Part shown: piece after piece, positions 2,726 to 31,389 of the stretch
Layout of the letters: every line of letters begins with the position of its first letter
Numbering within the stretch: the stretch's first letter is position 1
NCBI RefSeq assembly: GCF_016903815.1
Contig: NZ_CP069973.1
DNA length: 64,000 bases
Source: Escherichia coli
GTDB lineage: Bacteria > Pseudomonadota > Gammaproteobacteria > Enterobacterales > Enterobacteriaceae
Reading direction: 5' to 3' (one strand)
Made by a program: the position numbers and the translations under genes
Notes under the pieces: generated by a model
Told to the model about the DNA's origin: nothing
Databases searched by the model: none
The model's input: the letters and a program-made list of their open reading frames with translations, nothing else

Positions 2726-2861
2726 CTAGCTTACCTCTGTAATTAAATCAAATGACAATATAAGTAATGCAGATTGCTCTATATTTTTAAAATTGAAATA
2801 GTATTCATGCGTAACAAATAAACAAGTGCAGCATTTTTTCGCACTCTTATTACATCTTTTA

Positions 2862-3779: not shown

Positions 3780-3887
3780 AACATCACTCTATATTTACCA
3801 GATGAATTACCTTTTCAGATAAAAGTAACAACCAGAAGTCGTGGAGAAAGTAACGGGCTATATATTGATACATAGCCCGTCTGGTAT

Positions 3888-6440: not shown

Positions 6441-6488
6441 ATAAAACTCCCGAATATATTTTGTTAACCTTGCGGAGATGCCAGGGTA

Positions 6489-7064
6489 TTAATGAATAAT
6501 GCTAGTGCCCATTTGAGTAATAAAGTGACGTAATATTGCTGGATGCCCCATCCAGGTAGTCGCGGTTATTAAATTACCATCCACAATGGCTTCATCATCT
6601 GCGGCAGTGACCCACTGGCCACCCGCCATTTCCACTTCCGGTTTTACCGTAAAATATCCCGTCAGTTTCCGGCCTTTTAATACCCCAGCAGCGGCCAGAA
6701 TTTGTGGGCCATGACAAATTGCAGCAACAGGTAATGTTAAATTCATCGCGTAATGCACGATATCCAATACTGACTTATTTAATCGCAAGTATTCCGATGA
6801 ACGCCCACCAGAAATATAAACACCACTATATTCCTGTAACCTTATGTCATCAAATGATGCAGTTAATCTAAAAAGATGTCCGGGTTTTTCGGTGTAGGTC
6901 TGATCACCTTCAAAATCATGAATCGCGGTTTTAATAAACTCGCCGGTACGTTTTCCCGGACACACTACATCCACTCTGAAACCTAACATGTTTAATGCCT
7001 GCCATGGCACCATGACTTCATAGTCTTCAGAGAAATCGCCTGTGATAAGTAATATCTTCTTCAT
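6489..7064 (-). CDS. DJ-1/PfpI family protein
   Basis: Start taken at MKKILLITGDFSEDYEV; conserved AICHGPQIL nucleophile-elbow-like segment. Confidence 0.5.
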   Translation of the reverse strand: MKKILLITGDFSEDYEVMVPWQALNMLGFRVDVVCPGKRTGEFIKTAIHDFEGDQTYTEKPGHLFRLTASFDDIRLQEYSGVYISGGRSSEYLRLNKSVLDIVHYAMNLTLPVAAICHGPQILAAAGVLKGRKLTGYFTVKPEVEMAGGQWVTAADDEAIVDGNLITATTWMGHPAILRHFITQMGTSIIH

Positions 7065-7074
7065 AAGCGGACTC

Positions 7075-7374
7075 TCAAAACTGGTTATCGTCTTCCTCAA
7101 TGATTCGCATGGCTTCATGCACCGCCGCGACTTCGCCAAAAATGGCCAATGTGGTGATATGCTGAGGGCAACTGCCAAAGATTTCTGATACCACCACATT
7201 GGCGCTTTTACTGGCTACGTCGGCATAAAAATAGAGATCCGGAACCGGCAGTATTAACAAACCAATGGCGTCGATGCGAATCAAATCCAAACGCGAACGA
7301 AACTCCCCGGGCATACGCCGTTTCAACATAGCCAAAATATCCGGGGTCGGTGCGTTTATGATTCGTTTTTTCAT
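7075..7374 (-). CDS. BMC shell protein, PduU/EutS-like
   Basis: 99 aa; pattern resembles circularly permuted BMC domain. Confidence 0.55.
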   Translation of the reverse strand: MKKRIINAPTPDILAMLKRRMPGEFRSRLDLIRIDAIGLLILPVPDLYFYADVASKSANVVVSEIFGSCPQHITTLAIFGEVAAVHEAMRIIEEDDNQF

Positions 7375-7397
7375 CTTTAAGTCACCCTTCGCGATAG

Positions 7398-8915
7398 TTA
7401 GCGAATATTCAGCGCTTCAACCATTACACAGCGACGACGGCGTGCAAACGAACGCGCTGACGTAAGTCCCTCGCCGGTCGGTCCGGCAATCGTAAAGGTG
7501 GCATGCCCTTCACCGCCCACCCCCAGCCCTGCATAAGAGGGACCATTTTTAACAAAGATGGTGGTCTGGATCAGGCGCGCCATTTTGGTCAGCTTTTCGA
7601 CGTTGGTGGAGTGCATAACCGCGGTATGACGATTGCCGTGCTCCACTTTCACCGCCAGCTCAATGGCTTCATCAACATTGTCTACGCGCACCACCGGCAG
7701 GACCGGCATCATCAGCTCATGCACCACAAACGGATGTGTTTTCTCAGCCTCAATTAAGATGACTTTGATATCGTCGCCAACCTGGATTCCCAGTTGTTGC
7801 AGGATATAGCGCGCATCTTTGCCGACAAAGGCGGTATTCGGCCCAGTGCCTTTTTCATTAAGCACCAACGATTGCAGTTGTTGACTTAACTTCTTATCGC
7901 ACAACAGATAGGCACCGCTTTTCTTCATGCAGTGAATCAGATAGTCCGCTACCTGGTTCACAACAATCACCTCTTTTTCCGCCACGCACGGCAGGTTGTT
8001 GTCGAAGCTACAGCCCTTAATGATGTCGCGGGCTGCTTTTTCGATATCCGCCGTTTCATCTACCACAGCTGGCGGGTTACCTGCGCCTGCACCAATCGCT
8101 TTTTTACCTGATGACATCACGGTTTTCACGATGGCTGGACCGCCAGTCGCTACCAGCATGTTGATACGTGGGTCGTTGATCAGGACGTTGGTATTGTCGA
8201 TGGACGGTTTGGTCACCGTTACCACCATGTTAGCCGGTGCGCCCAACTGGGCAAGCTTGTTGTTGATCAGCTCAACCGCGTACAGCGACACTTTGCGCGA
8301 GCGCGGATGTGGACTGAACACCACAGTGTTGCCTGCCGCCAGCATGCCTATGCTGTTGTTGATAATGGTTTCGGTCGGGTTAGTCGTTGGTGTAATCGAA
8401 CCAATCACTCCGAACGCAGAGTATTCGATCAACGTTAAACCCCCGTCTCCGGAAACCGCGCTGGTGGTCAGATCTTCGATACCTGGCGTTTTCAGCGCTG
8501 CGACGCGGTTTTTGATCAGTTTGTCCTCGTAATTCCCCATGCCGGTCTCTTCCACCGCCATACGGGAAAGGGCACACAGCACATCTTCCTGCAGGAAGAC
8601 ATCGCGAATGCCATTGATAAACGAGGCGCGGTCTTGCATAGAACAGTGGCGATACTGCACTTGTGCCAAGACGGCGGCGGAAATCGCCTCATCCATGGTA
8701 TCGAATGCTCCAGTGCTAGCATTCGCTACCTTCGCTACCTGAGAGATCGCACTGGCGTCGCGCACGGAAGAGTGCTGCGCCAACGCCTTAGCGACAATTT
8801 CATCCAACCCGTCGACCCGCGCTGCTTCTGACGTGGCGGGAGCTTCATCCGGTGTTGCTTTGGTGAATTTGCTCAGAATGGTCGAGACAGCCTGAGCGAT
8901 TTCAATATCATTCAT
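7398..8915 (-). CDS. CoA-acylating aldehyde dehydrogenase (PduP/EutE-like)
   Basis: 505 aa ALDH-fold ORF in BMC operon context. Confidence 0.8.
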   Translation of the reverse strand: MNDIEIAQAVSTILSKFTKATPDEAPATSEAARVDGLDEIVAKALAQHSSVRDASAISQVAKVANASTGAFDTMDEAISAAVLAQVQYRHCSMQDRASFINGIRDVFLQEDVLCALSRMAVEETGMGNYEDKLIKNRVAALKTPGIEDLTTSAVSGDGGLTLIEYSAFGVIGSITPTTNPTETIINNSIGMLAAGNTVVFSPHPRSRKVSLYAVELINNKLAQLGAPANMVVTVTKPSIDNTNVLINDPRINMLVATGGPAIVKTVMSSGKKAIGAGAGNPPAVVDETADIEKAARDIIKGCSFDNNLPCVAEKEVIVVNQVADYLIHCMKKSGAYLLCDKKLSQQLQSLVLNEKGTGPNTAFVGKDARYILQQLGIQVGDDIKVILIEAEKTHPFVVHELMMPVLPVVRVDNVDEAIELAVKVEHGNRHTAVMHSTNVEKLTKMARLIQTTIFVKNGPSYAGLGVGGEGHATFTIAGPTGEGLTSARSFARRRRCVMVEALNIR

Positions 8916-8975
8916 CTTTAAATTCCTTACTACTCTTCATCTGCCGACCGCGCCGCGTGCATCGTCATCAGATGC

Positions 8976-9761
8976 TTAGATATATGGCGTCGTGGTGGAT
9001 TTAATTTCCACCGGATCTAACGTGGAGAGCAGTTGTAGACCGACTTCACGCGCGGCAATCACCGCCTGACGTACTGCACCGGAATCACCGGAGAAGGTGA
9101 AGATCACTTCGTTACTAAAGCTGGTGCCTTGCGACGGGCTGGCATAACCCACCGGGTCAATCACGGCGGATTTCGCCGCAGCGTCGGCAATCACCAGGCC
9201 AATCGCCGCAGGCGAGGCACAGGTCATCCCGAAGGATTTACCAATCGGCGCACCCAGCGCTTTATTCAGCGCGTAGCTGGCACGAGCGGTGTACTGGAAT
9301 TCAAGATGTCCGGCTGACGAGCCATAAACGTCACCCATGGTGCGTTCAATTTCAGACAGCGCCACTTCAACCGCACGCCTGACGTCGGAAACATCAGACG
9401 CACCGAAAATAATTAAGCAACCGTGTCCGCCACCTCCTTCGGTATCGCGGGCCAGCTCAATAGAAATAATTTCGCTGTTGGTTGCTTTAATCGCTTCGTC
9501 AGCCGCAAAAATTTGCGGGCCTGCGCCAGTACGTGCGCCAAGAATACCGATAGAGCGATATTTCTTGTCGATATTCATGACTTCATGCAATTGATTATCA
9601 ACATTGGCAATCACTAGGCCGATAGTGTGGCCCAACGCAGTGCCGACAAATTCCGTAATACCGCAACCAGCGAAATTCGCTGCTGTTTTAGCTTCCGGTG
9701 AGATATCGGTTTGTTTATTCATTACGTCAGATATAATCTGCTCAACAAGATTATCTCTCAT
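8976..9761 (-). CDS. BMC-T shell protein, PduB-like (tandem BMC domains)
   Basis: 261 aa; segments EFVGTALGHTIGLVIANVD, RSIGILGARTGAGP, TARASYAL, GDSGAVRQAV match my recollection of PduB. Confidence 0.7.
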   Translation of the reverse strand: MRDNLVEQIISDVMNKQTDISPEAKTAANFAGCGITEFVGTALGHTIGLVIANVDNQLHEVMNIDKKYRSIGILGARTGAGPQIFAADEAIKATNSEIISIELARDTEGGGGHGCLIIFGASDVSDVRRAVEVALSEIERTMGDVYGSSAGHLEFQYTARASYALNKALGAPIGKSFGMTCASPAAIGLVIADAAAKSAVIDPVGYASPSQGTSFSNEVIFTFSGDSGAVRQAVIAAREVGLQLLSTLDPVEIKSTTTPYI

Positions 9762-9782
9762 GATCAGTATCCTTTATTGTTA

Positions 9783-10064
9783 TTAACCGATAGCCTTCGG
9801 TAGAATTTTTTCCACCTCAATGTGTGGGCGTGGAATAACATGTACGGAGACCAGTTCTCCCACTTTACTCGCAGCAGCGGAGCCCGCATCTGTCGCGGCT
9901 TTCACTGCGCCAACGTCGCCGCGAACCATCACAGTCACCAAGCCGGAGCCGATTTTTTCATAACCCACTAGGGTCACGTTGGCAGATTTCACCATGGTAT
10001 CTGCAGCTTCAATTGCAGAAACCAGACCTTTCGTTTCAACCATTCCTAATGCTTCTTGTTGCAT
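9783..10064 (-). CDS. BMC-H shell protein, PduA/EutM-like
   Basis: Start taken at [14 protein letters not shown]; single BMC domain. Confidence 0.75.
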
Positions 10065-10348
10065 AACGACCTCAATATTTCCGATAGAAAGAAAACGTGC
10101 ACAGAGGAATAGCAATCTACGGATTCACCCATGTGCATTAATTATTTAATTATCATAATGCTAAGGTTATTCAGACAAAATGTTTTGCGCGTCAGTGGGA
10201 CTATCTTGCTTTTGCATTCCCGCAATTGACAATAAAATCCACCCGAGGTTTGTAATAAAAGATCTGCGTTTAAACTTCCTTGCAAAATAGCCCCGCTCTG
10301 AATAGCGATCATAATTACTGTTAAAACTGTCGTATTTTTGCCAATTAG

Positions 10349-11545
10349 TTATGCCGTGCGGGCAATCTCCGCTGCATCTATAGCAATCATTTTTTCTTCA
10401 TTGGTTGGGATGACCGCAATCTTCGTGGTGTCGGTTTTAGAAATCAGTCCGCTACGTCCGCCGAACAGCTGCTGGTTACGTTCTTTATCCAGTTCCAATC
10501 CCAGCGCCTGAAGGCGTTGCACGGTAAGTTCTCGAATTAACGCCGAGTTTTCGCCAATTCCACCGGTGAAAATCAGCGCATCGAAGCGTTTAAGCGAGGT
10601 CACGTGGCCGCCGATATGTCGTGCGAGACGATGTACTAACACGTCGATGGCTAACGCTGCCCGTTCGTGGCCCTCATCACGCGCCTGCTGAAGGGTGCGG
10701 CAATCGCTGGATAAGCCGGAAATCCCCATTAGGCCGGACTGGTTATTGAGCATTTTGTACAGCGTGTCGAATGTTTGACCTGTGCGTTTCGCCAGATATG
10801 CGACGACACCAAAATCAAGATCCCCGCAGCGCGTGCCCATTACCAGCCCTTCCAGCGGGGTCATACCCATTGAGGTGTCAATGCTCGTGCCGTTTTGCAC
10901 CGCACATAGCGATGAACCGTTGCCCAAGTGGGCAATCACGATGCCATGATCCGCCGGGTCGAGATCTAGTGATGCAAGCGCTTCTGCGGCAATATAGCGG
11001 TGAGATGTTCCGTGAAAGCCGTAACGTCGCACCATATAATCTTGCTGGAACTCCAGCGGGATCGCATAGGTGTAAGCAGCCGGAGACAAGGTCTGGTGGA
11101 ACGCAGTATCGAACACCGCAATATGCGGCAACGCGGGCAACAGAGCCCGAGCCGCTTCAATACCAATCAGGTTGGCAGGGTTATGCAAAGGGGCCAGCAC
11201 CGACAGCGCGCGGACTTTTTCGATCACATCATCGGTAACCAGTACTGATCTTTTGAAGTCGCTGCCGCCATGAGCCACGCGGTGCCCAACGGCGTTGATG
11301 GCTTCCAACAGTTGCTGTTCGTCGAGCTTCGCGAAGAGCACTTTGAGCGCATGCTGATGGCTGGCGTCATCCAGCGCGACAGTGGATTTATGGCCGTCTC
11401 GGTCTTTAAACGTTATGACAGCATGATCAATACCCAGTCGTTCCGCTAGGCCCGACAGCAACGGCTGATCTGCATCCTGAGGAATGACGGAGAATTTCAT
11501 TGATGAGGAACCACAATTAATCACTAATACACAAGCTAAAGACAT
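10349..11545 (-). CDS. Acetate/propionate kinase
   Basis: N-terminal VLVINCGSSSMKF motif; start taken at MSLACVLVIN to avoid overlap with upstream gene. Confidence 0.75.
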   Translation of the reverse strand: MSLACVLVINCGSSSMKFSVIPQDADQPLLSGLAERLGIDHAVITFKDRDGHKSTVALDDASHQHALKVLFAKLDEQQLLEAINAVGHRVAHGGSDFKRSVLVTDDVIEKVRALSVLAPLHNPANLIGIEAARALLPALPHIAVFDTAFHQTLSPAAYTYAIPLEFQQDYMVRRYGFHGTSHRYIAAEALASLDLDPADHGIVIAHLGNGSSLCAVQNGTSIDTSMGMTPLEGLVMGTRCGDLDFGVVAYLAKRTGQTFDTLYKMLNNQSGLMGISGLSSDCRTLQQARDEGHERAALAIDVLVHRLARHIGGHVTSLKRFDALIFTGGIGENSALIRELTVQRLQALGLELDKERNQQLFGGRSGLISKTDTTKIAVIPTNEEKMIAIDAAEIARTA

Positions 11546-11573
11546 GATGCCCCCTGAAATGGACTGCAAAAAA

Positions 11574-12071
11574 TTAACGGGTTGTTGTGAGGGGATAACG
11601 CAGAACGCTAAACTGCGCCATCGCCTGGCGGGCGATGAGCATATCTTCCTCAACACTGCCGCCGCTGATGCCGATGCCGCCTAGTAAGCGCCTGCCCGAC
11701 CAGCAGGGAAAACCACCGCCGAAGCAGCAGATATCTTTTTCTTTCTCAAGGCCGTACAAATCACCACCCGGCTGTACCAGCGTTGCCAGTTCGTGAGTTG
11801 GCATTTTGAGAGCTACCGCGGTCCAGGCCTTTTGTGGTGCCAAGGTATGGCTGACCAGCAGGGCGTTATCCATGCTGAAGAAAAAACGCTGCTGACCGCA
11901 GGCATCCACTAGGCTAAAAACGATCGATACATTGCTGGACTGTGCCATTTCCCGGGCCAACTTTGCCAGCAGTTCACTGTCCTCCAGGCTCAGCGACATC
12001 CGGAGTTCCGGTAACTGCGTGGCAATAGCCTCATTAATCCAGTTGTCGAGTGAAGCCTCATTCGCAGACAT
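11574..12071 (-). CDS. DUF336/GlcG-like (PduO C-terminal domain-like) protein
   Basis: 165 aa; GGIGISGG-type motif. Confidence 0.55.
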   Translation of the reverse strand: MSANEASLDNWINEAIATQLPELRMSLSLEDSELLAKLAREMAQSSNVSIVFSLVDACGQQRFFFSMDNALLVSHTLAPQKAWTAVALKMPTHELATLVQPGGDLYGLEKEKDICCFGGGFPCWSGRRLLGGIGISGGSVEEDMLIARQAMAQFSVLRYPLTTTR

Positions 12072-12098
12072 AAGTATTCCTCAGCGTACGCGCCGCTA

Positions 12099-12368
12099 TT
12101 AACCGTTAAGTTCGAGCGTGTCGACGATACCCACCACGGCAGCGTCAATCACCGAGTGATCTTTGTTGTTGCTCATACGCGCCGAACTGCCGGTGGTGAT
12201 GATCACAATCTCTCCATTGCCCGCGCCGACAGTATCAACTGCCACCTGGGCATGGACAGTCGGCTGATAGTTTTCATCGAGCCGCGCCACTATCAGCAGT
12301 TTTGAGCCATTCAGCGAGGCGTGTTTGGTGGTGGAAACCAATGCGCCAGTAACTTTAGCGAGGTACAT
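12099..12368 (-). CDS. BMC vertex protein, EutN/PduN/CcmL family
   Basis: 89 aa with typical BMC-P size and pattern. Confidence 0.7.
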   Translation of the reverse strand: MYLAKVTGALVSTTKHASLNGSKLLIVARLDENYQPTVHAQVAVDTVGAGNGEIVIITTGSSARMSNNKDHSVIDAAVVGIVDTLELNG

Positions 12369-12379
12369 ATTTCCTCCGG

Positions 12380-13105
12380 TTAACCATGGATAACAGTGAG
12401 ATTACGCCGCTGGATTTCATCTCTGGCAGCAGGGGTAATCAGCGTGTCGCTCTCAATGCGCAGCACTGTGCCAATGGTCAGTAGGCGGATATCGCTCTGG
12501 GTGATTAAACGTTTTTTACCGGCTACTGTCAGGGTGGATTGGCTTCCTTGCACCGACTTGACATGGGCTGCACGTTTACCGAAAAGCGTAATGCCATAGC
12601 TCTCTAGGACCTGAGCGTAACCTTCCAGACAAGACAGCAGTGGCATCGGTAATTCGCTATCGACGCATTGTTGATGCAGCGTGGCGATAATCTGTTTACG
12701 GTGCTGTAACGCCTGAAATACAGTTTCACAGGCCAGATTATCGCGAATGCCCAGCGCAATTTTGCTCATGCTGTTGACAGAGAGCGCAGGCAGATAGAGC
12801 ACCTCATAGTGAGGCGGCGATCTGTCAAATCCAGCACGAGAACCACGCTGAATTAGCGCATCCATGCAGACAGATTTCAGCGCCGACTGGCTGGCGCTGT
12901 GAGAAAAATTTACCCACAACTGATAGCCCGCCAGCTCAAGCGCCTCAAGGCAGTTCAGCGTTTCCGGCAGCGAGGAGATATCCTCACCAGTCACCACTAC
13001 GCAGACATTTTTCTGCGCGACGGATTGTGCCAACACTTCAGCGATGACCCGGTCCAGCAGTTGCGATAAGGTTTGATTGTCCATTGATTTACCCCTGGTC
13101 CGCAT
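12380..13105 (-). CDS. Hypothetical microcompartment-locus protein (possibly PduM-like)
   Basis: 241-aa ORF embedded in the operon; no motif I can place confidently. Confidence 0.35.
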   Translation of the reverse strand: MRTRGKSMDNQTLSQLLDRVIAEVLAQSVAQKNVCVVVTGEDISSLPETLNCLEALELAGYQLWVNFSHSASQSALKSVCMDALIQRGSRAGFDRSPPHYEVLYLPALSVNSMSKIALGIRDNLACETVFQALQHRKQIIATLHQQCVDSELPMPLLSCLEGYAQVLESYGITLFGKRAAHVKSVQGSQSTLTVAGKKRLITQSDIRLLTIGTVLRIESDTLITPAARDEIQRRNLTVIHG

Positions 13106-13847
13106 TCATGGCGATGCCTAATGGTGTGACCAATAGTGGCTCTGCCGAAGGAATCACATTTTTACCGGTTTGTTTACTGAACACGTTGGCAAACTGGCTG
13201 AAGCTGCTCGCGCCACCTACCAAATAAATATTTTTTACCTGCTGGGTAGCGAACCATCCCGACACCAAGCTGGCCATTTTCTGGGCCACCGGTAGCACCA
13301 GGGTAAAGACCTGCGCTTCCTGCCCGTTTTTTTTCATTTCTTCCGCCTCGGCATAAGGCAAGCCCAGCGCGCCAGCGATCACCAACTTCATATGGCTTCC
13401 ACCGGTGGGCTCATCGGCACTGAACGTCACTTTACCGCTTTTCAAAATGCTCATGCCGGTGGTGCCTCCTCCGACATCCACCACCGCCCCGTTTTTAATA
13501 TTCAGCGCGCTGGCAGCGGCTACCGGTTCATCTAGTACTTGGGTCACGATAAAACCCGCCAACTCCACTACGTTGACGATCACTTTTGTGTTGCCTTCAG
13601 AGATCCCCGGTGGGACTGCGATCGCCGCGCGCTCCAGCGTGCAGCCCTGTTTCTGTTCAAGAATTTGTTTGAGACGTGCTACTACCCGGCTGGCGGTCAG
13701 GTAATCCACCACCACGCCGTCTTTCACCACATTGGAGGGATACATTACCCCTGCCACCGGCTGGTTATCTTCATCCAGCACCACGATTGCGATATTGGCG
13801 GTACCGAGATCCCCCCCACCTTCAACGCGCCGGAGTAGGGCCGACAT
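13089..13847 (-). CDS. EutJ-like actin-fold ATPase/chaperone
   Basis: DLGT near N-terminus, VVDVGGGTTG, DEPTGGSH segments typical of EutJ. Confidence 0.7.
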   Translation of the reverse strand: MSALLRRVEGGGDLGTANIAIVVLDEDNQPVAGVMYPSNVVKDGVVVDYLTASRVVARLKQILEQKQGCTLERAAIAVPPGISEGNTKVIVNVVELAGFIVTQVLDEPVAAASALNIKNGAVVDVGGGTTGMSILKSGKVTFSADEPTGGSHMKLVIAGALGLPYAEAEEMKKNGQEAQVFTLVLPVAQKMASLVSGWFATQQVKNIYLVGGASSFSQFANVFSKQTGKNVIPSAEPLLVTPLGIAMNADQG

Positions 13848-13901
13848 TCGCCGCTGTCAATCAGCGCGGCCAATTCGTGAAATCGGCAGTTTTCGGGGCT
13901 G

Positions 13902-14588
13902 TTAGCCATGGCGCGCAGCCTGTTTTATGCCGCGAACGGTATCGCCATTACGCAGACCGACGCCGTTAGCTTCTTCCATATCAATATGCAGTTCCAGCAC
14001 TGCATCCGCCGTGACGCGTACCACTACATGGCTGAGCACACCACCGCGCGGACCGTTTGTTTGCACATCGATTTCCATTCCGTCATGCAGGCCGTGCAAT
14101 TCGGCTTCTTCGGGCGAGATATGGATATGGCGCCAGGCGACAATCATGCCGTTGTGTTTCACCACCCGCCCTTTCGGACCGATGATTTCAATGCCCGGCG
14201 AATCCAGCAGATCCCCCGACATGCGCACCGGAGCTTTAGTGCCCAGCGCAAAGCCGTCGGCCACAGAGATTTCCACCTGCGTGGCATTACGCAGTGGCCC
14301 TAACACGCGCACTTTGTTGAGCTCGCCTTTTGGCCCGCGCAGCGTCACCATCTCTTCGGCGGCATACTGACCGGGCTGTTTCAACGCTTTAGAACGGGTT
14401 AGCGTAGAGCCGTAGCCAAACAGAATGTCCATATCTTCACGGCACAGATGAACATGGCGGTTGGACACGCCCACCGGAATATTCAGCGCGACGGGCGCGG
14501 CAGCAGGCGCTGCCGTTTTTTTACTGGTGGCAAGTTCCTGCAAAATTTGTTGGGTAATCCACTCGGCTTGTTGTTCGGTGTAATTCAT
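13902..14588 (-). CDS. PduL-type phosphotransacylase
   Basis: 228 aa with two PduL-like repeats (HVHL...; HIHIS...). Confidence 0.7.
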   Translation of the reverse strand: MNYTEQQAEWITQQILQELATSKKTAAPAAAPVALNIPVGVSNRHVHLCREDMDILFGYGSTLTRSKALKQPGQYAAEEMVTLRGPKGELNKVRVLGPLRNATQVEISVADGFALGTKAPVRMSGDLLDSPGIEIIGPKGRVVKHNGMIVAWRHIHISPEEAELHGLHDGMEIDVQTNGPRGGVLSHVVVRVTADAVLELHIDMEEANGVGLRNGDTVRGIKQAARHG

Positions 14589-14727
14589 AATGGGTACGAC
14601 CTGATTATTGGGTTATCTTATGGGTAATGGGCGTCTAACGATCAGGATAGGGAGTAACGACGCCCGGTTTTTGTTTATCAGCAGGACTTTTTTGACTGCT
14701 TCACGGAGGCTGAACAAAGTTATCCAG

Positions 14728-15846
14728 CTAGCCGGTAATCAGGTCGATCAACCCTTCGACATCATGCGTCGTCACCTGCCGCGGGTTCGACGCGGTACAA
14801 CCGTCGGCCAGCGTCGAATTCACCAGTGCGCTGCGCAACTCGATGATTTTTGCACGGTCGATACCCAGTTCGCTGAGAGTGACGGGGATGCAGAAATGGC
14901 GATTGATCTGGCGGATCTCCTGAGTCATCAGCGCGATGGCCTGCTCCGGTACCGCATGGTCAATGCCTATGATTTGCGCGCAACGGTGATAGCGATCGCG
15001 GGTTTCAGTGCTGGCCCGTTTGCTGTTGAAGTCGATGACAATCGGCAGCAGCATGGCGTTAATTTTGCCATGAGGAATATGCAGCATCCCGCCGATGGCG
15101 TGTGCCATGCCGTGTACCAACCCCAGCCCGGCGGAGTTAAATGCCATGCCTGCCATACAGGAGGCATTGTGCATGTGGGTGCGCGCCGCAATGTCTTTTT
15201 CGTCGTTAAACACCTGCGGCAGATAGCGCCAGGTCAACGCGATGGCTTTTTCCGCCAGCGCATCGCTAAAGTCATTTGAGCCAGTAGAGACAAAGGCTTC
15301 AATGGCATGGGTCAGCACGTCCATGCCGGTATCTACCGCGACATGACGCGGCGCGGTTAACACTAGGTTAGGATCGAGAATGGCGATTTCCGGCACCAGT
15401 TGCCCGGAGATCAACGGATATTTGCGGCCATTTTGCGGATCAGAGATGATCGCGTAGGACGTCACTTCAGAGCCGGATCCGCTGGTTGTGGGAATAGCAA
15501 TGAGATCGATTTGATGATCTCCAAAATACTCTTCCAATGTGACTTTAATTCCTTTCGCAGCGTCCAGCGACGAGCCGCCGCCGAGGGCGATAATAACGTC
15601 GGGCTTAAAGGCTTTAAAACGCGCCGCGCCGGAAGTCAGAATATCAATATCTGGATCCGGAGTAACCTCGCCGAAAATGCATACCGATGCCTCAGGCATA
15701 TGGCTTATTAAATAACGAGTTTTACCTGATGACATCATAAAATCATCGGTGACAATACCGACTCGTTTATTATTAAATTGGCATAGAGAGGTTATTGCCT
15801 CTTCACCAAAATAAATTTTGGGGCACGAAAAATAATAGCGGGCCAT
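14728..15846 (-). CDS. Iron-containing alcohol dehydrogenase (PduQ/EutG-like)
   Basis: 372 aa; GGGSSLD and metal-binding His-rich segment; first gene of the minus-strand cluster. Confidence 0.8.
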   Translation of the reverse strand: MARYYFSCPKIYFGEEAITSLCQFNNKRVGIVTDDFMMSSGKTRYLISHMPEASVCIFGEVTPDPDIDILTSGAARFKAFKPDVIIALGGGSSLDAAKGIKVTLEEYFGDHQIDLIAIPTTSGSGSEVTSYAIISDPQNGRKYPLISGQLVPEIAILDPNLVLTAPRHVAVDTGMDVLTHAIEAFVSTGSNDFSDALAEKAIALTWRYLPQVFNDEKDIAARTHMHNASCMAGMAFNSAGLGLVHGMAHAIGGMLHIPHGKINAMLLPIVIDFNSKRASTETRDRYHRCAQIIGIDHAVPEQAIALMTQEIRQINRHFCIPVTLSELGIDRAKIIELRSALVNSTLADGCTASNPRQVTTHDVEGLIDLITG

Positions 15847-16064
15847 GTGTAACTACCTTAATCATGGTAAACGACCAAATTTGATGTCGTTAACCTAACA
15901 TGGCGATTTTTTTAATGGACTGAGGATGTTTGTGCAGGTGAAGGATTATTTTGCGGTATTGTTTTGCCTTGAGCAAAAAAGTCCTTTTCTAGGAAATACC
16001 TAAAATCTGATACAGTCAAACTCAATATTTATTGTCAGAGAATGAATAAAAGCGGGGTGTTTTT

Positions 16065-16703
16065 TTGCCGCTGCACTGCTTCAGGAATGTATTCACCCCT
16101 CATAAAGGCTTCAATGACTCTCCGCCATGGCAAACATGCCATAGGGGGAGATTTTCAGATAATGATAATAATGTTCGCCCACATCCGATTGTAAATGGAT
16201 CAGAAAAACGGCCGCGTATTGCCCTGCTGAATGTGGATTACGTCACCAGTTTTGAACTGCCTTTTCGCTTGCTGCTTACCCGGACACCACAACTGATTGC
16301 CGCGCTGCGTGAAGAATGGGGCATCAGCCAGAAAAATGTGGTGTTTAACGATAAACGGTTTGGTTGCGTGTACAGCCTGAAGGCCAGCCTTTCTGGTGTG
16401 CCGGATACATTCCGGTATCATCTGTCTCACCGTATTCGTCGCGTGGTTGGGAATGAAAACACATCATTGCCATATCAGCAGGTTGCCCGGGAAGTGAAAG
16501 CGCCCCGTGAACGGCTGAAGTATGCACTGGAGGCGGGTTTACTGGTGACTGCACTGGACGGCCTGTTCTGGTTTGGCAGTCAGCGTATTGCGGCTGATGT
16601 TCTGAGGCTGAGAAAGGCCGGAATGCCGGTGGTGACCACGACCGTGGAGGTGCACGATAACCTGACAGGAACAACCCGCAAAGTACCGGCATACCATCTC
16701 TGA
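16065..16703 (+). CDS. Hypothetical protein, start codon uncertain
   Basis: Long open frame with no internal ATG until near the end; likely a GTG/TTG start. Confidence 0.3.
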   Translation: MPLHCFRNVFTPHKGFNDSPPWQTCHRGRFSDNDNNVRPHPIVNGSEKRPRIALLNVDYVTSFELPFRLLLTRTPQLIAALREEWGISQKNVVFNDKRFGCVYSLKASLSGVPDTFRYHLSHRIRRVVGNENTSLPYQQVAREVKAPRERLKYALEAGLLVTALDGLFWFGSQRIAADVLRLRKAGMPVVTTTVEVHDNLTGTTRKVPAYHL

Positions 16704-16723
16704 TACAACCATCAAGGGGAATA

Positions 16724-17032
16724 TTGCTCTGGCAGCAGCAGTACGACATTCTTTATACTTTATCCCCGTGCCTGAAAATATGTGCTAAGGAAACGGGAAT
16801 GGCAAGGTCCGATTATGATATTATTAATCTGTCTCTGAAACATGAACTGAATGAGTGGCTGACAGAGAGAGGTTATGCCGGACTGGCGGATAACCGGAAC
16901 CGCTTGGCAGAGGTGGTTACCCGGAAATTGCAGGACAGCTTTTATATAAACGTTTCCTGGGATGCGCTGAACACGGCATACAGTGAACACCCTGAGTGGT
17001 TTTCAGGGCTTGTCTCCGGAGATGAGAATTAA
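16724..17032 (+). CDS. Hypothetical small protein (likely starts at MARSDYD)
   Basis: ORF track only. Confidence 0.3.
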   Translation: MLWQQQYDILYTLSPCLKICAKETGMARSDYDIINLSLKHELNEWLTERGYAGLADNRNRLAEVVTRKLQDSFYINVSWDALNTAYSEHPEWFSGLVSGDEN

Positions 17033-17084
17033 TAAGTGGATTATGCTGCCATCAGGCAGTGTGATTGCCGGCAGGGATTTCGTT

Positions 17085-17276
17085 TTATTCTGTTTCTTCC
17101 CGGGGGGCGGGTTTGAATTTTCCCAGAAAGTTGTACATCGGTCGCATGCAGGGATGCGGATAGCCGTCCCGCATAAACACCACCCGGGTTTCCTCAACAC
17201 TGGTCACGGTGACAAGCGCACCATGATCGTCTTTGTATCGCTGATTGACTTTCGGTAATGGAACATCTTCTGACAT
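17085..17276 (-). CDS. Hypothetical small protein
   Basis: 63-aa ORF; ORF track only. Confidence 0.25.
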   Translation of the reverse strand: MSEDVPLPKVNQRYKDDHGALVTVTSVEETRVVFMRDGYPHPCMRPMYNFLGKFKPAPREETE

Positions 17277-17899
17277 AAATTTTAGTACGGTAACAGTTAA
17301 CTAAATTTTCATGTGGTAGCACTGAATCAGGAGACTGCGTTTCCTGATGTGCGCTGTTAATTTTCTGTTTTTACGAAACATTTTCCCCTTCTTCCTGTAT
17401 ATTTTATTGCGCTCCTCCTTTCATGTCCTTCCCATATCCTGAAACTCACTTAAATGCTGTTGAATCGTCATGCATTGCAATTTTCAATGACTGAAATCAA
17501 AAATTGCTATTTTTTTAGCTAACCAACTGTATTAAAAGCATTCAGTGGAATAATTTTCTGCACTTTTCCATTAATTATGGTTATAAATTTTGCAATGTGC
17601 TGTTTTTGCGATATATGGCAGAATAAAGAACTGTTCATTTGTGTTATATCGATCGATAAATCTGTCACATTGCTGTAGTTCAGATCATTATTCTATAATG
17701 ATCAAAAATAAGTCAGCTAAAAATTGGCAGATTTATTGCTCAGCATTCTGGTACCGGTTGATGCGGGTAAATACCGGAAGGGCGGTAGCGTGCCATCGCA
17801 AAACATGGTGGGAGGTATCGTCAGGAGGCTGGTGATTGTTGGTATGACATGAATAAAAGGTTTTTCGTTTGACTGGAAAATTATGTTGCAGGAACGAGA

Positions 17900-18265
<366 letters not shown>

Positions 18266-18357
18266 GTTTTTTTATTTCTGAATAAAGCGACATCCACGAT
18301 ATAACGTCGTGGGTGTCGGTGATGATTCTTTTTTTGTTCGCAGATTAAGGTGCGTTT

Positions 18358-20145
<1,788 letters not shown>

Positions 20146-20538
20146 TACCGGACCATTTCTTTATTCCGGACTTTCCCCATACTGTTATTATCAGGTTTAT
20201 TTAATTCGCCATGAACCCGTTATTTAACGATATTCAGATGCGTCTTTTTCATCTGAACCACTCGCCGTACTCCTGGTACTGGAATGTAAGATTCATACCT
20301 CTGGAAGCCGTGTATATTGGCAACGATACCTGTCATATCACCATTACCTGTAATCAGTCCGGTTTTCACTGAGCGTTATATCAGAAACCTTAATGAGCTG
20401 TTACCGGTTCTGAAACGGCGGTGGGATGTGACACCGGCAATCATCTGCGCAGTGGAATACCTTTCCTGGGTAACGGTATCGCACTGACTCTCTCCCTATA
20501 ATTAACAATGGTTTAATACCTAAACACTGAATCTGCCG

Positions 20539-20979
20539 ATGACTTCTGAAGTGAAACTGAAAACCGGTGGTGACCCCCGGTCATTACCGGATTATGCTGC
20601 CCTGCGCGATGAAATCAGCAAACTGACCCACCCGGCACGCCCTGATGTGGACTGGCGTTACGTGGAAACGCTCTGCCTGCGTCTGTATGAACACAATGGC
20701 GTGGAATTACAGACGGCATCCTGGTACACCATTGCCCGGATGCATACAACAGGGTTAAGTGGTCTGAATGAAGGGCTGGCTCTGATTGCTGCGCTGACCC
20801 GGCATCACTGGTCAGTGATGTGGCCGCTGAATACACACTCCCGGCTGGAAATTATTACCGGTCTGTTCAACCGTCTGCAAAAAACGCTCCGGGCCATGCC
20901 TCCGGATAACCGTGACAACCTGCCCCTGCTGTATCAGACCGAAACATTCCTGAAGACACTGAGTGATCTCCTTCCATGA
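20539..20979 (+). CDS. ImpA_N-like domain protein (T6SS TssA/VasL N-terminal domain family)
   Basis: Pattern [13 protein letters not shown]...[15 protein letters not shown]...[13 protein letters not shown] resembles ImpA_N; stop lies 45 bp before IS2. Confidence 0.45.
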
Positions 20980-21114
20980 AAATACGCAGGCTTGGCACGA
21001 ACTTAAACAGAGCAGTAAAGTGGTAGACTGGCCCCCTGAATCTCCAGACAACCAATATCACTTAAATAAGTGATAGTCTTAATACTAGTTTTTAGACTAG
21101 TCATTGGAGAACAG

Positions 21115-21480
21115 ATGATTGATGTCTTAGGGCCGGAGAAACGCAGACGGCGTACCACACAGGAAAAGATCGCAATTGTTCAGCAGAGCTTTGAACCGGG
21201 GATGACGGTCTCCCTCGTTGCCCGGCAACATGGTGTAGCAGCCAGCCAGTTATTTCTCTGGCGTAAGCAATACCAGGAAGGAAGTCTTACTGCTGTCGCC
21301 GCCGGAGAACAGGTTGTTCCTGCCTCTGAACTTGCTGCTGCCATGAAGCAGATTAAAGAACTCCAGCGCCTGCTCGGCAAGAAAACGATGGAAAATGAAC
21401 TCCTCAAAGAAGCCGTTGAATATGGACGGGCAAAAAAGTGGATAGCGCACGCGCCCTTATTGCCCGGGGATGGGGAGTAA
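21115..21480 (+). CDS. insC: IS2 transposase OrfA (InsC)
   Basis: Starts [26 protein letters not shown]. Confidence 0.85.
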
Positions 21481-22343
21481 GCTTAGTCAGCCGTTGTCTC
21501 CGGGTGTCGCGTGCGCAGTTGCACGTCATTCTCAGACGAACCGATGACTGGATGGATGGCCGCCGCAGTCGTCACACTGATGATACGGATGTGCTTCTCC
21601 GTATACACCATGTTATCGGAGAGCTGCCCACGTATGGTTATCGTCGGGTATGGGCGCTGCTTCGCAGACAGGCAGAACTTGATGGTATGCCTGCGATCAA
21701 TGCCAAACGTGTTTACCGGATCATGCGCCAGAATGCGCTGTTGCTTGAGCGAAAACCTGCTGTACCGCCATCGAAACGGGCACATACAGGCAGAGTGGCC
21801 GTGAAAGAAAGCAATCAGCGATGGTGCTCTGACGGGTTCGAGTTCTGCTGTGATAACGGAGAGAGACTGCGTGTCACGTTCGCGCTGGACTGCTGTGATC
21901 GTGAGGCACTGCACTGGGCGGTCACTACCGGCGGCTTCAACAGTGAAACAGTACAGGACGTCATGCTGGGAGCGGTGGAACGCCGCTTCGGCAACGATCT
22001 TCCGTCGTCTCCAGTGGAGTGGCTGACGGATAATGGTTCATGCTACCGGGCTAATGAAACACGCCAGTTCGCCCGGATGTTGGGACTTGAACCGAAGAAC
22101 ACGGCGGTGCGGAGTCCGGAGAGTAACGGAATAGCAGAGAGCTTCGTGAAAACGATAAAGCGTGACTACATCAGTATCATGCCCAAACCAGACGGGTTAA
22201 CGGCAGCAAAGAACCTTGCAGAGGCGTTCGAGCATTATAACGAATGGCATCCGCATAGTGCGCTGGGTTATCGCTCGCCACGGGAATATCTGCGGCAGCG
22301 GGCTTGTAATGGGTTAAGTGATAACAGATGTCTGGAAATATAG
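21438..22343 (+). CDS. insD: IS2 transposase OrfB (InsD), DDE domain
   Basis: 301 aa overlapping OrfA in -1 frame. Confidence 0.85.
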
Positions 22344-22355
22344 GGGCAAATCCAA

Positions 22356-23084
22356 GTGGCTTTACCGGAAGCCATGGTGAAGGGATATATCACCCGCCTG
22401 GAGAACCAGCCTGTGCAGGGGGAAGTATCGTCTCCGGTAACGCTACTGGCGCAGGCACTCAGGCTTGAAGCTCCGGATGTGCAGGAACATCAGACCCTGC
22501 CGCACTCCCGTCTGGTGTATGTTGTTTCTGAAACAAAAACAGAGCCCACACTCTTCCTTCAAAAATCCCCGCTCACGTTTCTGAAAACGTTTGTTACAGG
22601 TGTCTGTACGGCATTGCTGGCGGTCTGCGTGGCCATTCCGGGATGGCAGTTTCTGACACAGCCATCACCGGCGGAGCAGCAACTCAGGGCGCTGCTGACA
22701 CCCTCACCGGATGTGCTTTCAGCAGACCAGATGATGCAGCTCAGCAGAACACTGTTAAATCATGCGTCAGAGTGGATAACCCTTTCCGGTCAGCAGATAA
22801 CGCGACTGACAGAATTCCCCCCGGCATACAACCTGCAACGCAGTGTGCAATTGCTGCAGCAACTGATGGTACTTTTCCCCGACAATCCTCGTGTTCAGGA
22901 AATGGTGGATAACTGGCAGAAGAGTGCAAGGAGTCGTGCGCTCCCGGAAGAGGCGATGACTGGCTGGAACGAAGGCATGACCCGCTTACAGCTGTTGGCT
23001 GAGCGCCTGAACCGTCCGGATGAACAGCGGGGAAAATACATGACGGTCAGTGAGCTGAAAACGGAGGTGTCTGGCATCATGTAG
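22356..23084 (+). CDS. Hypothetical membrane protein immediately downstream of IS2 (start ambiguous: GTG at 22356 or ATG at 22374; frame stays open upstream across the IS2 site)
   Basis: One predicted TM helix (FVTGVCTALLAVCVAIPGW); possibly C-terminal part of the ImpA_N gene. Confidence 0.4.
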   Translation: MALPEAMVKGYITRLENQPVQGEVSSPVTLLAQALRLEAPDVQEHQTLPHSRLVYVVSETKTEPTLFLQKSPLTFLKTFVTGVCTALLAVCVAIPGWQFLTQPSPAEQQLRALLTPSPDVLSADQMMQLSRTLLNHASEWITLSGQQITRLTEFPPAYNLQRSVQLLQQLMVLFPDNPRVQEMVDNWQKSARSRALPEEAMTGWNEGMTRLQLLAERLNRPDEQRGKYMTVSELKTEVSGIM

Positions 23085-23275
23085 GCTTTTAACCGGCATA
23101 TCCTGGCAGAAGAACAGTTGTGTCACTATGGTGAAGTCCGCAACCAGAATGGAAGCGAGCAGCAGCAAAAACAAATGAAAGATGCATTTGTTAAGCTGAT
23201 TCACGTTTACTGTTTTATATAAAGCCTTTAGGATGTGGGGGAAGGGGAGTGTTGCAATTTATTCGGTGAGATAGT

Positions 23276-24123: not shown

Positions 24124-25356
24124 ATGAATGATAATTTTTTAACGGAGAAAGTCCTTACTGGAGAGAATGTTCTGCGTGCAGCAATTGCTCGTATTGAGTG
24201 GATTTTTGAAATATTTCCATCAGTTTGTCTCTCTTTTTCCGGTGGTAAAGATTCCACCGTGCTTTTCCATCTTGTGGCTGATGTGGCCCGCAGGAAAAGA
24301 CGTCGTTTCTCTGTACTGTTCATTGACTGGGAGGCTCAGTACCAGTGCACCATTGAACATATTCAGAAGATGCGGGAAATGTACCATGATGTGACGGAAA
24401 CCTTTTACTGGGTGGCGCTTCCCCTGACCACGGTAAACGGTGTCTCGCAGTTTCAACCGGAGTGGATATGCTGGGAGCCTCGTGTGACCTGGGTTCGCCA
24501 GCCACCGGAAGAGGCCATTACGGATATGGCGTATTTTCCCTTTTACCGGTATGCCATGACGTTTGAAGAATTTGTTCCGGCATTTTCTTCCTGGTTTGCT
24601 GGCAACCGGTGTGGAGTGGCAGTGCTGACCGGTGTCCGGGCGGATGAATCCCTCAACCGCTTTATGGGACTGGTGTCCCAGCGCAAACTGAGATATGCCG
24701 ATGATAAGCCTTGGACCACGGCATCGCCTGAAGGGTTTTACTACACTATGTATCCGCTGTATGACTGGAAAACTCGTGATATCTGGATATATCACACCAG
24801 AACCCGTGCCATCTACAATCCCCTGTATGATCTGATGTACCGTGCCGGCGTACCGTTACGCAACATGCGTGTCTGTGAACCTTTTGGTCCTGAACAACGT
24901 AAGGGACTGTGGCTTTACCATGTTCTGGAACCGGAAACCTGGGCCAGGATGTGTGAGCGGGTGTCAGGGGCTGCCAGCGGGGCACTTTATGCCAATGAAA
25001 GCGGGGCTTATTTTGCCCTGCGTAAGCGCATATCAAAACCAGCCCATCATACCTGGCGCAGCTATGCGATGTTTCTGCTGGATGTGATGCCGGAAAGAAC
25101 GGCAGAACATTACCGCAACAAGATAGCTGTCTATCTGCGCTGGTATCAGACGCGGGGCTTCCCGGATGACATCCCGGATGAACAGGAGAATGACCTGGGG
25201 AGCCGGGATATTCCGTCCTGGCGACGTATCTGTAAGACTCTCATAAAGAATGATTTCTGGTGCCGTACCCTCTCCTTCAGTCCGAACAAACCCCGGCACT
25301 ATGAACGTTATCTGCAGCGTATGAAAGAAAGGAGGAAGGAATGGGGGATTCTGTGA
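24124..25356 (+). CDS. ibrA: IbrA-like PAPS-reductase/DndC-like ATP pyrophosphatase family protein
   Basis: PP-loop SFSGGKDS near N-terminus; 410 aa; overlaps downstream ParB-like gene by 16 bp. Confidence 0.7.
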   Translation: MNDNFLTEKVLTGENVLRAAIARIEWIFEIFPSVCLSFSGGKDSTVLFHLVADVARRKRRRFSVLFIDWEAQYQCTIEHIQKMREMYHDVTETFYWVALPLTTVNGVSQFQPEWICWEPRVTWVRQPPEEAITDMAYFPFYRYAMTFEEFVPAFSSWFAGNRCGVAVLTGVRADESLNRFMGLVSQRKLRYADDKPWTTASPEGFYYTMYPLYDWKTRDIWIYHTRTRAIYNPLYDLMYRAGVPLRNMRVCEPFGPEQRKGLWLYHVLEPETWARMCERVSGAASGALYANESGAYFALRKRISKPAHHTWRSYAMFLLDVMPERTAEHYRNKIAVYLRWYQTRGFPDDIPDEQENDLGSRDIPSWRRICKTLIKNDFWCRTLSFSPNKPRHYERYLQRMKERRKEWGIL

Positions 25357-25979
25357 CACCGGAGATACTGAGCAACATGATTCGTCAGTACTTCAGCCAG
25401 GAACGACCAGAAGAAGAGGCCATACAGGCCCTGAATCATCTGCGCAGGGTGCTTCATGAGGTCAGTCCATTTGCACAGGAGCCTGTGGACTGTGTGCTGT
25501 GGGTGAAAGCAGATGAGGTGGTGGCCAACGATTATAACCCCAATGTCATGGCGCCGGGTGAGAAGAAACTGCTGAAACATTCACTGGAGCAGGATGGGTT
25601 CACGCAGCCTGTGGTTGTCTCGGAAGAGAAGGAGCATTATCTGGTCGTGGATGGTTTTCATCGTCAATTACTGGGCAGGGAAGCAGGTACGGGAAAACGC
25701 CTGAAGGGCTGGTTGCCAGTGACCTGTATTAATCCGGAAAGAAAGGGACAGGCCTCACGTATTGCTGCAACCATTAGACATAACCGGGCCAGGGGGAAGC
25801 ACCAGATAACTTCAATGTCTGATATTGTCAGGGACCTGTCGCGGCTGGGCTGGACGGATGAACGTATTGGTACGGAGCTGGGTATGGACCAGGATGAAGT
25901 TCTCAGGTTGAAACAGATTAGCGGGCTGACGGAGCTGTTTCTGGAAGAGGATTTCAGTCCGGCATGGACGATTCGCTGA
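25341..25979 (+). CDS. ibrB: IbrB-like ParB/sulfiredoxin-fold (DGQHR-like) protein
   Basis: VVDGFHRQ motif (DGQHR-like) in a 212-aa ORF. Confidence 0.65.
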   Translation: MGDSVTPEILSNMIRQYFSQERPEEEAIQALNHLRRVLHEVSPFAQEPVDCVLWVKADEVVANDYNPNVMAPGEKKLLKHSLEQDGFTQPVVVSEEKEHYLVVDGFHRQLLGREAGTGKRLKGWLPVTCINPERKGQASRIAATIRHNRARGKHQITSMSDIVRDLSRLGWTDERIGTELGMDQDEVLRLKQISGLTELFLEEDFSPAWTIR

Positions 25980-26018
25980 GACCGTCATATATGTATATTA
26001 TTTCAGTGAGTTAATGTT

Positions 26019-26327
26019 TTGAGCAGGAAAAAGAGTACCCCGGAAGTCGTGGAATACATGGTTGCACAGAAGCTGGAGGCTGCGGGTTGCTGGCGCAGAG
26101 CTTCCGCCCGCTGGCTTTTTGTTATGGGAAATGTTGAATGTACAGAAGCACAACGGGAGTGGTTGTTGTTGCGCAGGAATTATTGCCTGGCGCAGATATC
26201 GTCCCCGCCGCTACCTGAAAAGCTGGATATCAGCGAAGTGGCGAAAGCTGCAGATGCCACGCTGAGGCGAATGGGGATTGCCAGTCCGTCCGGGGAGGTA
26301 TTCAGAAAAGGTACACCGGTCTGTTGA
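26019..26327 (+). CDS. PerC-family transcriptional regulator homolog
   Basis: LEAAGCWRRASARW segment resembles PerC/Pch family. Confidence 0.5.
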   Translation: MSRKKSTPEVVEYMVAQKLEAAGCWRRASARWLFVMGNVECTEAQREWLLLRRNYCLAQISSPPLPEKLDISEVAKAADATLRRMGIASPSGEVFRKGTPVC

Positions 26328-26347
26328 TATTCAGGTAACAGGTATTA

Positions 26348-27427: not shown

Positions 27428-28252
27428 CTACTGAAGGTGTTTCTGCAGCCAGATGCACGTTCCTTCTATATCATACGCCTGTGCCCCATACCCTTTAGCA
27501 AGCAAAGTCTCTGGTAAATACTCGTCATATTTATCCAGATACTTGTCGGGAACAACTGCAGCAAGCTCAAACTCTGAAGGTAGCCCCGACAATAGCATTT
27601 TCTTAAGTGCACGCTGGACAGAGGCAACGCCTGAGTCCTCTACCTCTATCACACCTGCAAATGAACTGGCTTTAAAGCCACAACGTATAATCAGGGACGT
27701 AATTGTATTGACAATTTTATCCCCCATCCACGGGATCACGTAGCAGTTCTGACCACTGGCAATAAAACAGTCATTTTGTAGATTGTAGCGTTGGAAGTTG
27801 TCACTTCCTTCCGCGAAGAGGCTTCTGGCTGCGGCATCAGCATAATCGACTCTCTTGTTGCCTACCGCGATACGGTAATCATTTTCCCTGTAGATAGTGA
27901 GCATTTCCTGGCGAACAACATCATGAACAGACATCCCGGTACCACTGAATAGTGGCGGCTGACCGCCTTTAGTCGTCTCAACATAGATAACCTTTTTTTC
28001 AACCTCGATCTCTGTCACTTTCCAGCGCCGTCCGCCGAAGATGATGTGCTGCTCCGGCAAAAGTGGGGAGTCTACAGGCACTGTGCCAAGAGTTCGGTTT
28101 CCCGTTACAATGCGAAACTCCTCAGGTGTATTGAATACGGCATAAAACGTGTAGTGATTAGTCAGCTTCTCCCCCTCAGCCCCGACAACTATTTCACCGC
28201 TGGTTAGTTGAGTGAGCAGTACGGGGTCGGACCGGTATGCAGCGAACTGCAT
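27428..28252 (-). CDS. Hypothetical protein abutting an IS junction (possibly N-terminally truncated)
   Basis: 274-aa ORF whose 5' end overlaps the start of the IS3-family OrfB frame on the opposite strand. Confidence 0.4.
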   Translation of the reverse strand: MQFAAYRSDPVLLTQLTSGEIVVGAEGEKLTNHYTFYAVFNTPEEFRIVTGNRTLGTVPVDSPLLPEQHIIFGGRRWKVTEIEVEKKVIYVETTKGGQPPLFSGTGMSVHDVVRQEMLTIYRENDYRIAVGNKRVDYADAAARSLFAEGSDNFQRYNLQNDCFIASGQNCYVIPWMGDKIVNTITSLIIRCGFKASSFAGVIEVEDSGVASVQRALKKMLLSGLPSEFELAAVVPDKYLDKYDEYLPETLLAKGYGAQAYDIEGTCIWLQKHLQ

Positions 28253-28604
28253 ATTGCCCCGTCAACGTATTACCATTGTCAGCAACAGCGACATCATCCG
28301 GATAAACGCAGTGCCCGTGTGCAGCACGATGACTGGCTGAAGAGAGAGATACAGCGCGTATACGATGAAAATCATCAGGTGTACGGTGTGCGTAAAGTCT
28401 GGCGTCAGTTGTTACGGGAAGGAATCAGGGTGGCCAGATGTACAGTGGCGCGCCTCATGGCGGTTATGGGACTTGCCGGTGTTCTCCGGGGTAAAAAGGT
28501 CCGTACGACCATCAGCCGGAAAGCCGTTGCCGCAGGCGACCGCGTAAACCGTCAGTTCGTGGCAGAACGTCCTGACCAGTTGTGGGTGGCTGATTTTACT
28601 TACG
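28208..28604 (+). CDS. IS3-family transposase OrfB, 5' exon
   Basis: Ends ...ERPDQLWVADFTY just before GTGTG. Confidence 0.6.
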
Positions 28605-31347
<2,743 letters not shown>

Positions 31348-31389
31348 GTTCACAGATAAAACACTCTCCAGGAAACCCGGGGCGGTTCA

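Follow-up and report, generated by a model that had tools for sequence, protein, structure and literature searches.

The locus at 20539-23222 of the window, by which we mean the whole 64-kb stretch of Escherichia coli DNA that was analyzed, is very probably an intact and ordinary IS2 lying in a tagA gene that was already inactivated and orphaned. Judged from its sequence, this copy of tagA (20539-23222) is a pseudogene of the TagA family and not a functional member. An N-terminal ImpA_N domain, a central hydrophobic segment and a truncated C-terminal VasL domain can all be recognized in it. They are not carried on one uninterrupted polypeptide (a 16-nt insertion, IS2 and a premature stop intervene), and no T6SS gene cluster is encoded together with them in the window. 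In the sequence of events that we propose, a complex 16-nt insertion would first have shifted the tagA frame after codon 143, a CAG>TAG mutation would then have cut off the last 46 codons, and an intact IS2 would finally have transposed into AGTGG, 10 codons past the frameshift, with the usual 5-bp duplication.

The boundaries of the IS2, set from the sequence, enclose a complete element of 1331 bp at 21024-22354, in the + orientation, the same as tagA. Its left end begins TAGACTGG at 21024 and its right end finishes CAAATCCA at 22354; when aligned, these ends form imperfect terminal inverted repeats of 42 bp (IRL, 21024-21065) and 41 bp (IRR, 22314-22354). The element encodes orfA (21115-21480, + strand, 121 aa, with its ATG at 21115) and orfB (21438-22343, + strand, 301 aa), which overlaps orfA in the -1 frame, and the A6G slippery motif (AAAAAAG) lies at 21432 in the orfA/orfB overlap. 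Perfect 5-bp copies of the target site AGTGG stand on both sides, at 21019-21023 and 22355-22359, the right copy enclosing the GTG that was listed as the start of the downstream ORF. The element thus combines a length of ~1.3 kb, imperfect terminal repeats, a 5-bp duplication and overlapping orfA and orfB with A6G, as is characteristic of IS2, and the description in the earlier note of a complete IS2 with a perfect AGTGG duplication is confirmed. The same note correctly saw a short gap between the stop of the ImpA_N ORF and IS2; the distance to the first IS2 base is 44 bp, not 45 bp. In a genome with the identical sequence, PGAP labels the element an 'IS3-like element IS2 family transposase, programmed frameshift' and does not flag it as a pseudogene. 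A promoter and terminator consensus scan around the locus found no outward IS2 hybrid promoter, and consensus sites of these kinds were fewer there than in shuffled controls.

IS2 separates two ORFs. The first, ORF1 (20539-20979, + strand), is a 146-aa ATG ORF with the ImpA_N domain and represents the 5' fragment of the tagA pseudogene; the second, ORF2 (22356-23084, + strand), is a 242-aa GTG ORF comprising a linker, a predicted transmembrane segment and the truncated VasL domain, and represents the 3' fragment. When IS2 and one AGTGG copy were removed in silico, the ORF2 frame remained open upstream across the junction as far as a TGA at 20960-20962, as had been claimed for this membrane-protein ORF, and it then overlapped ORF1 by 17 nt in a different frame. 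A profile search of the IS2-excised product, a check suggested in the earlier note, found both domains: the Pfam scan placed ImpA_N (PF06812) at residues 8-109 of the joined product, within ORF1 (E 1.6e-17), and VasL (PF12486) at residues 306-402 (E 6.5e-24). The VasL match covers model positions 2-97 of 147 in the window product, whereas in the intact protein P0001 it covers positions 2-141 of 147. The transmembrane segment was predicted from Kyte-Doolittle hydropathy and corresponds to the 19-residue hydrophobic stretch LKTFVTGVCTALLAVCVAI at ORF2 residues 76-94 (~22581-22637; mean hydropathy 2.08). An assignment of the product to TssA proper was rejected, the NCBIfam TssA equivalog models matching the N-terminal part only and scoring 82.9 bits against a cut-off of 230 bits.

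We are highly confident that ORF1 and ORF2 are fragments of a single gene, the orthologue of TagA of EAEC 042 (by position EC042_4550). In tblastn comparisons, ORF1 shares 95.9% amino acid identity with residues 1-145 of 042 TagA, and the ORF2 region shares 83.4% identity with residues 155-449 in an alignment that reads through the stop. EC042_4550 we take to be TagA, its number having been obtained by counting locus tags. The counting starts from TssA, EC042_4540 (PMC6745524), and Tle1, EC042_4534 (PMC6730261), and puts the tagA orthologue at EC042_4550.

Compared with intact 443-aa alleles, the window tagA carries three lesions: the 16-nt insertion, IS2 and a CAG>TAG nonsense mutation. The first was mapped by alignment to the intact alleles L005, L009 and L011 and to the Sci-1-linked alleles L002-L004. 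It is a +1 frameshift at ~20966-20983 (+ strand; its placement is ambiguous by 1-2 nt), in agreement with a frameshift that had been suspected near 20960-20980, and the intact form of the sequence from 20963 onward reads GTGACACACTGGCCCGG. The final four codons and the stop of ORF1 are out-of-frame products of this insertion. The divergent alleles of 55989, CE0026f and DSM 103246 and those encoding the Salmonella proteins are all without the 16 nt and maintain a single frame across the site; therefore the 16 nt are a derived, frame-shifting insertion. Just downstream, five substitutions are clustered at 20986-21004, so that the lesion complex at 20966-21004 consists of 16 inserted nucleotides and five substitutions within ~20 nt. 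A 30-mer search of the 64-kb window for a donor of the insertion and its altered flank, allowing up to 3 mismatches, recovered nothing but the site itself.

The second lesion, IS2, lies 10 codons downstream of the frameshift, its target falling within the ancestral tagA coding sequence at the codons for Lys154-Val155 (KV) of ...QSSKVALPE.... The third is a C>T change at 23082 that converts a CAG Gln codon into a premature TAG (23082-23084, + strand) and deletes the last 46 tagA codons and with them about a third of the VasL domain. It leaves an untranslated remnant at 23085-23222 (+ strand), made up of the last 45 codons and the original TAA (23220-23222), in which a further substitution, T>G at 23205 (Phe>Val), is found. 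This nonsense codon had not been recorded in the earlier note, which also did not identify the gene as tagA or place the frameshift and the nonsense change before IS2.

A protein homologue search of a database of 5.8 billion proteins returned many matches of ~430-465 aa from E. coli and Salmonella, with the whole query covered. Among the homologues listed, ~100 of 120 are single proteins of 430-465 aa with both domains, the rest being partial or truncated, and the intact alleles are single ORFs of 443-465 aa bearing both ImpA_N and VasL. The closest intact alleles among the matches listed (P0001, P0004 and P0009) are 443 aa long, 97-98% identical and from independent assemblies. These single-ORF alleles support the proposal, made in the earlier note, that a frameshift split one VasL-like gene into the two ORFs. 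All intact copies of this particular allele came from draft or metagenome assemblies. The intact 443-aa allele of this lineage was absent from 5426 complete E. coli genomes, in which all full-length matches had the 16-nt insertion; the best matches to an intact-allele query in complete genomes had 98.5% identity and exceeded the query in length by 16 bp.

The lesions could be ordered by comparing genomes with and without IS2. Over 1210 bp, the IS2-excised window sequence agrees at 100% identity with IS2-free alleles in at least 40 complete genomes; at ≥99% identity, the number of matching records is 364. The 2546-bp segment that includes IS2 is covered to at least 80% in 35 of the 5426 complete genomes, with ~30 of those among the matches listed being essentially 100% identical; this sharing is consistent with one insertion inherited clonally. 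The 16-nt insertion also occurs in IS2-free genomes (L001 and L008). One of these, the copy in the pheV island of 042 (L008; NC_017626.1 3402041-3403388; L008:20001-21348), differs from the excised window sequence by 2 nt and has the 16-nt insertion, CAG instead of TAG, and no IS2. Four allele states can accordingly be distinguished: intact (L005, L009, L011), with the indel (042 pheV), with the indel and TAG (for example TCM3e1), and with the indel, TAG and IS2 (the window). The indel and the TAG predate IS2, because IS2-free alleles already carry both, and since those alleles were already broken, IS2 entered a gene that was already dead. EAEC 042 itself has two tagA copies, the intact one linked to Sci-1 and the frameshifted orphan in the pheV island.

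A different account, in which ORF1 and ORF2 are two naturally separate operon genes and IS2 merely occupies the spacer between them, is very unlikely. It draws on the RefSeq/PGAP annotation, which models IS2-free alleles as separate genes for an 'ImpA family N-terminal domain-containing protein' and a 'VasL domain-containing protein', and on the GTG at 20963, which could start ORF2 after excision with a 17-nt overlap. However, both domains lie on a single ORF in every intact relative, and the split coincides exactly with the 16-nt insertion, which is missing from all other alleles, the divergent Sci-1-linked and Salmonella ones included. The IS2 target, moreover, lies inside the ancestral coding sequence. 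IS2-free alleles of the locus, which the earlier note had proposed to look for, were found; they carry the same frameshift and so do not refute a single gene, and the evidence does not support the alternative offered in that note, two operon genes with IS2 between them.

The annotation carries no weight in this question, because PGAP also splits continuous tagA ORFs, and the two-gene models are thus an annotation artefact that does not refute a single gene. In RefSeq, IS2-free alleles appear as an ImpA_N gene and a VasL gene, between which stands a short pseudogene labeled 'POTRA domain' or 'ShlB/FhaC/HecB'. The same three-piece split is applied to 042 (L006:44071-45438), to 55989 (L002:5001-6368) and to L003 and L004, CE0026f and DSM 103246 being among these alleles. 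On translation, the tagA of 042, 55989, CE0026f and DSM 103246 each proved to be one continuous ORF of ~455 aa. The mis-split ORFs include the experimentally studied 042 gene, and the 'POTRA domain-containing' or 'ShlB/FhaC/HecB family' label of the middle piece is spurious. The 146-aa ImpA_N fragment, a clean ORF, is kept in RefSeq as the protein WP_001403216.1.

The surroundings of the pseudogene explain in what sense it is orphaned. When all 31 Sci-1-region proteins of EAEC 042 were used as tblastn queries, no T6SS core genes were detected in the 64-kb window, which bears out an earlier remark that no other T6SS genes are present there, and the only proteins matched were the exonuclease, the small ORF (in two frames), tagA, ibrA, ibrB and perC. 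In EAEC 042, the genes after the Sci-1 cluster (tssB...tssA...tssE) are, in order, those for a hypothetical protein, a GIY-YIG nuclease and a NERD/UvrD exonuclease, then the small ORF, tagA, two hypothetical genes, ibrA, ibrB and perC; the tagA orthologue follows tssJ/tssE in E. coli 55989 and DSM 103246. By blastn, window positions 16201-17716 correspond to the 042 genes that immediately precede tssB, the DUF4222 gene among them, and positions 18268-21023 to the stretch from the 042 exonuclease through the 5' part of tagA. In place of the ~29-kb Sci-1 T6SS cluster of 042, the window has ~550 bp (17717-18267), within which blastn, annotation and translation identify the 3' end of an IS3-family transposase gene (17997-18257, + strand). 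The cluster was probably lost by an IS-mediated deletion, of which these ~550 bp would be the scar.

Of the Sci-1 accessory operon, the T6SS-less island retains no more than the end (exonuclease, small ORF and tagA), after which come ibrA-ibrB-perC. What is left of the operon begins with the gene at 18358-20145 (+ strand), which encodes a NERD/UvrD-type '3'-5' exonuclease' homologous to EC042_4548. Next comes the homologue of the small gene EC042_4549 (20211-20487, + strand), which tblastn matched as two pieces in different frames and PGAP marks as 'frameshifted'; this homologue of a 101-aa small ORF that precedes tagA is a second pseudogene, adjoining tagA. EC042_4547-4549 have been described as part of the Sci-1 accessory operon (bioRxiv 10.1101/2025.02.08.637259). 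No plain match to the RfaH ops2 motif GGTAGNNT lies on the + strand of the retained intergenic region upstream of the exonuclease, either in the window or in 042.

Several other features of the island were observed. The ibrA (PAPS-reductase-like, DUF3440)-ibrB (ParB-like)-perC module, at 24124-26330, follows tagA in both T6SS-linked and T6SS-less islands. At ~27428-31350, an IS3-family remnant truncates a DEAD-box helicase gene and is in turn split by a group II intron (ltrA); this helicase belongs, in 042 and L009, to a trio whose other members are a BrxC/BrxD-like ATPase and a TerB_N protein. The same island also contains, upstream at ~1820-15850 (- strand), a complete grpA-grpO operon for a glycyl-radical propanediol-utilization microcompartment. 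In another genome (L009:1-11332), an intact 443-aa tagA comes immediately after a gsp type II secretion cluster and a truncated exonuclease gene, and T6SS genes are absent within 10 kb of it. Such intact orphan alleles indicate that loss of T6SS neighbors does not always lead to decay.

That the fragments keep a function, for instance as a free ImpA_N polypeptide that binds TssA or the sheath in trans and modulates a T6SS encoded elsewhere, appears highly improbable. ORF1 is uninterrupted and has a complete ImpA_N domain, the frameshifted allele is found at ≥99% identity in 364 records and coexists with a functional Sci-1 T6SS in EAEC 042, and overexpressed TagA has been reported to block sheath assembly in V. 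cholerae (PMC6745524). Against this, the lesions pile up in tagA (indel, nonsense codon and IS2) and the EC042_4549 homologue is frameshifted too, a pattern of neutral decay; the high identity of the carriers reflects their recent shared ancestry; the window lacks the native upstream T6SS operon together with its promoter; and window-type genomes have one tagA-like place each. It is just as doubtful that the orphan tagA or its ImpA_N fragment is expressed and acts as a trans modulator or decoy of TssA-dependent sheath assembly where a T6SS works, although if true, the tagA remnant would be a domesticated regulator, not junk. The reading of a dead, orphaned tagA with an IS2 inside it, the fragments being presumably without function, is the one that we prefer. 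The least tenable alternative, that sequencing or assembly introduced the frameshift and/or the stop in error and left IS2 as the sole real lesion in an otherwise intact tagA, is hardly credible: errors are possible in single-contig data and the earlier note had called for the reads at 20960-20980, but the 16-nt insertion is present in the EAEC 042 pheV copy and in every full-length allele-specific match, the TAG also occurs in at least 40 IS2-free genomes with 100% identity, a complex 16-nt insertion is unlike a typical homopolymer error, and the recurrence of insertion and TAG in hundreds of independent assemblies makes an assembly error unlikely.

The gene decay at this locus is ordinary and already annotated, and nothing in it lies outside known biology. 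It is a textbook example of an accessory gene that decays in steps once the machinery it served has been lost, or where that machinery was never in this island, and that finally receives an IS in DNA already without function; its biological weight is small. For annotation, the ImpA_N and VasL 'genes' and the 'POTRA domain' fragment of the island should be merged into one tagA pseudogene, and ImpA_N and VasL matches here must not be taken to indicate a T6SS. In the 35 genomes that have it in common, the identical IS2 junction could be used as a clonal marker.

Among known systems, the element compares directly with standard E. coli IS2 of the IS3 family, of which it is a standard copy with no notable difference. 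One of the closest counterparts of the gene is TagA of EAEC 042/17-2, a membrane-anchored, class B TssA-like protein also proposed as TsmA. In EAEC, TagA reportedly attaches to the TssA cap at the distal membrane, stops sheath polymerization and holds the extended sheath, and a tagA mutant reportedly retains only part of the killing activity (PMC6745524, PMC6730261). VasL/TagA of Vibrio cholerae (VCA0121) is likewise membrane-localized and limits sheath polymerization, although it is only ~19% identical to E. coli TagA (PMC6745524). The window copy shares with 042 TagA the order of genes (exonuclease, small ORF and tagA, then ibrA-ibrB-perC) and the order of domains (ImpA_N, hydrophobic segment, VasL). 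Unlike 042 TagA, it has a frameshifting insertion, IS2 and a nonsense codon, has no adjoining T6SS genes, and ends in a C-terminal tail of the 443-aa allele type, not the 455-aa type of 042. Another close counterpart is the remnant in the pheV island of 042, which has in common with the window the allele, the 16-nt insertion, the T6SS-less context, the IS3-family remnant and the frameshifted upstream small ORF, and which, lacking IS2 and the TAG, represents an earlier stage of the same decay.
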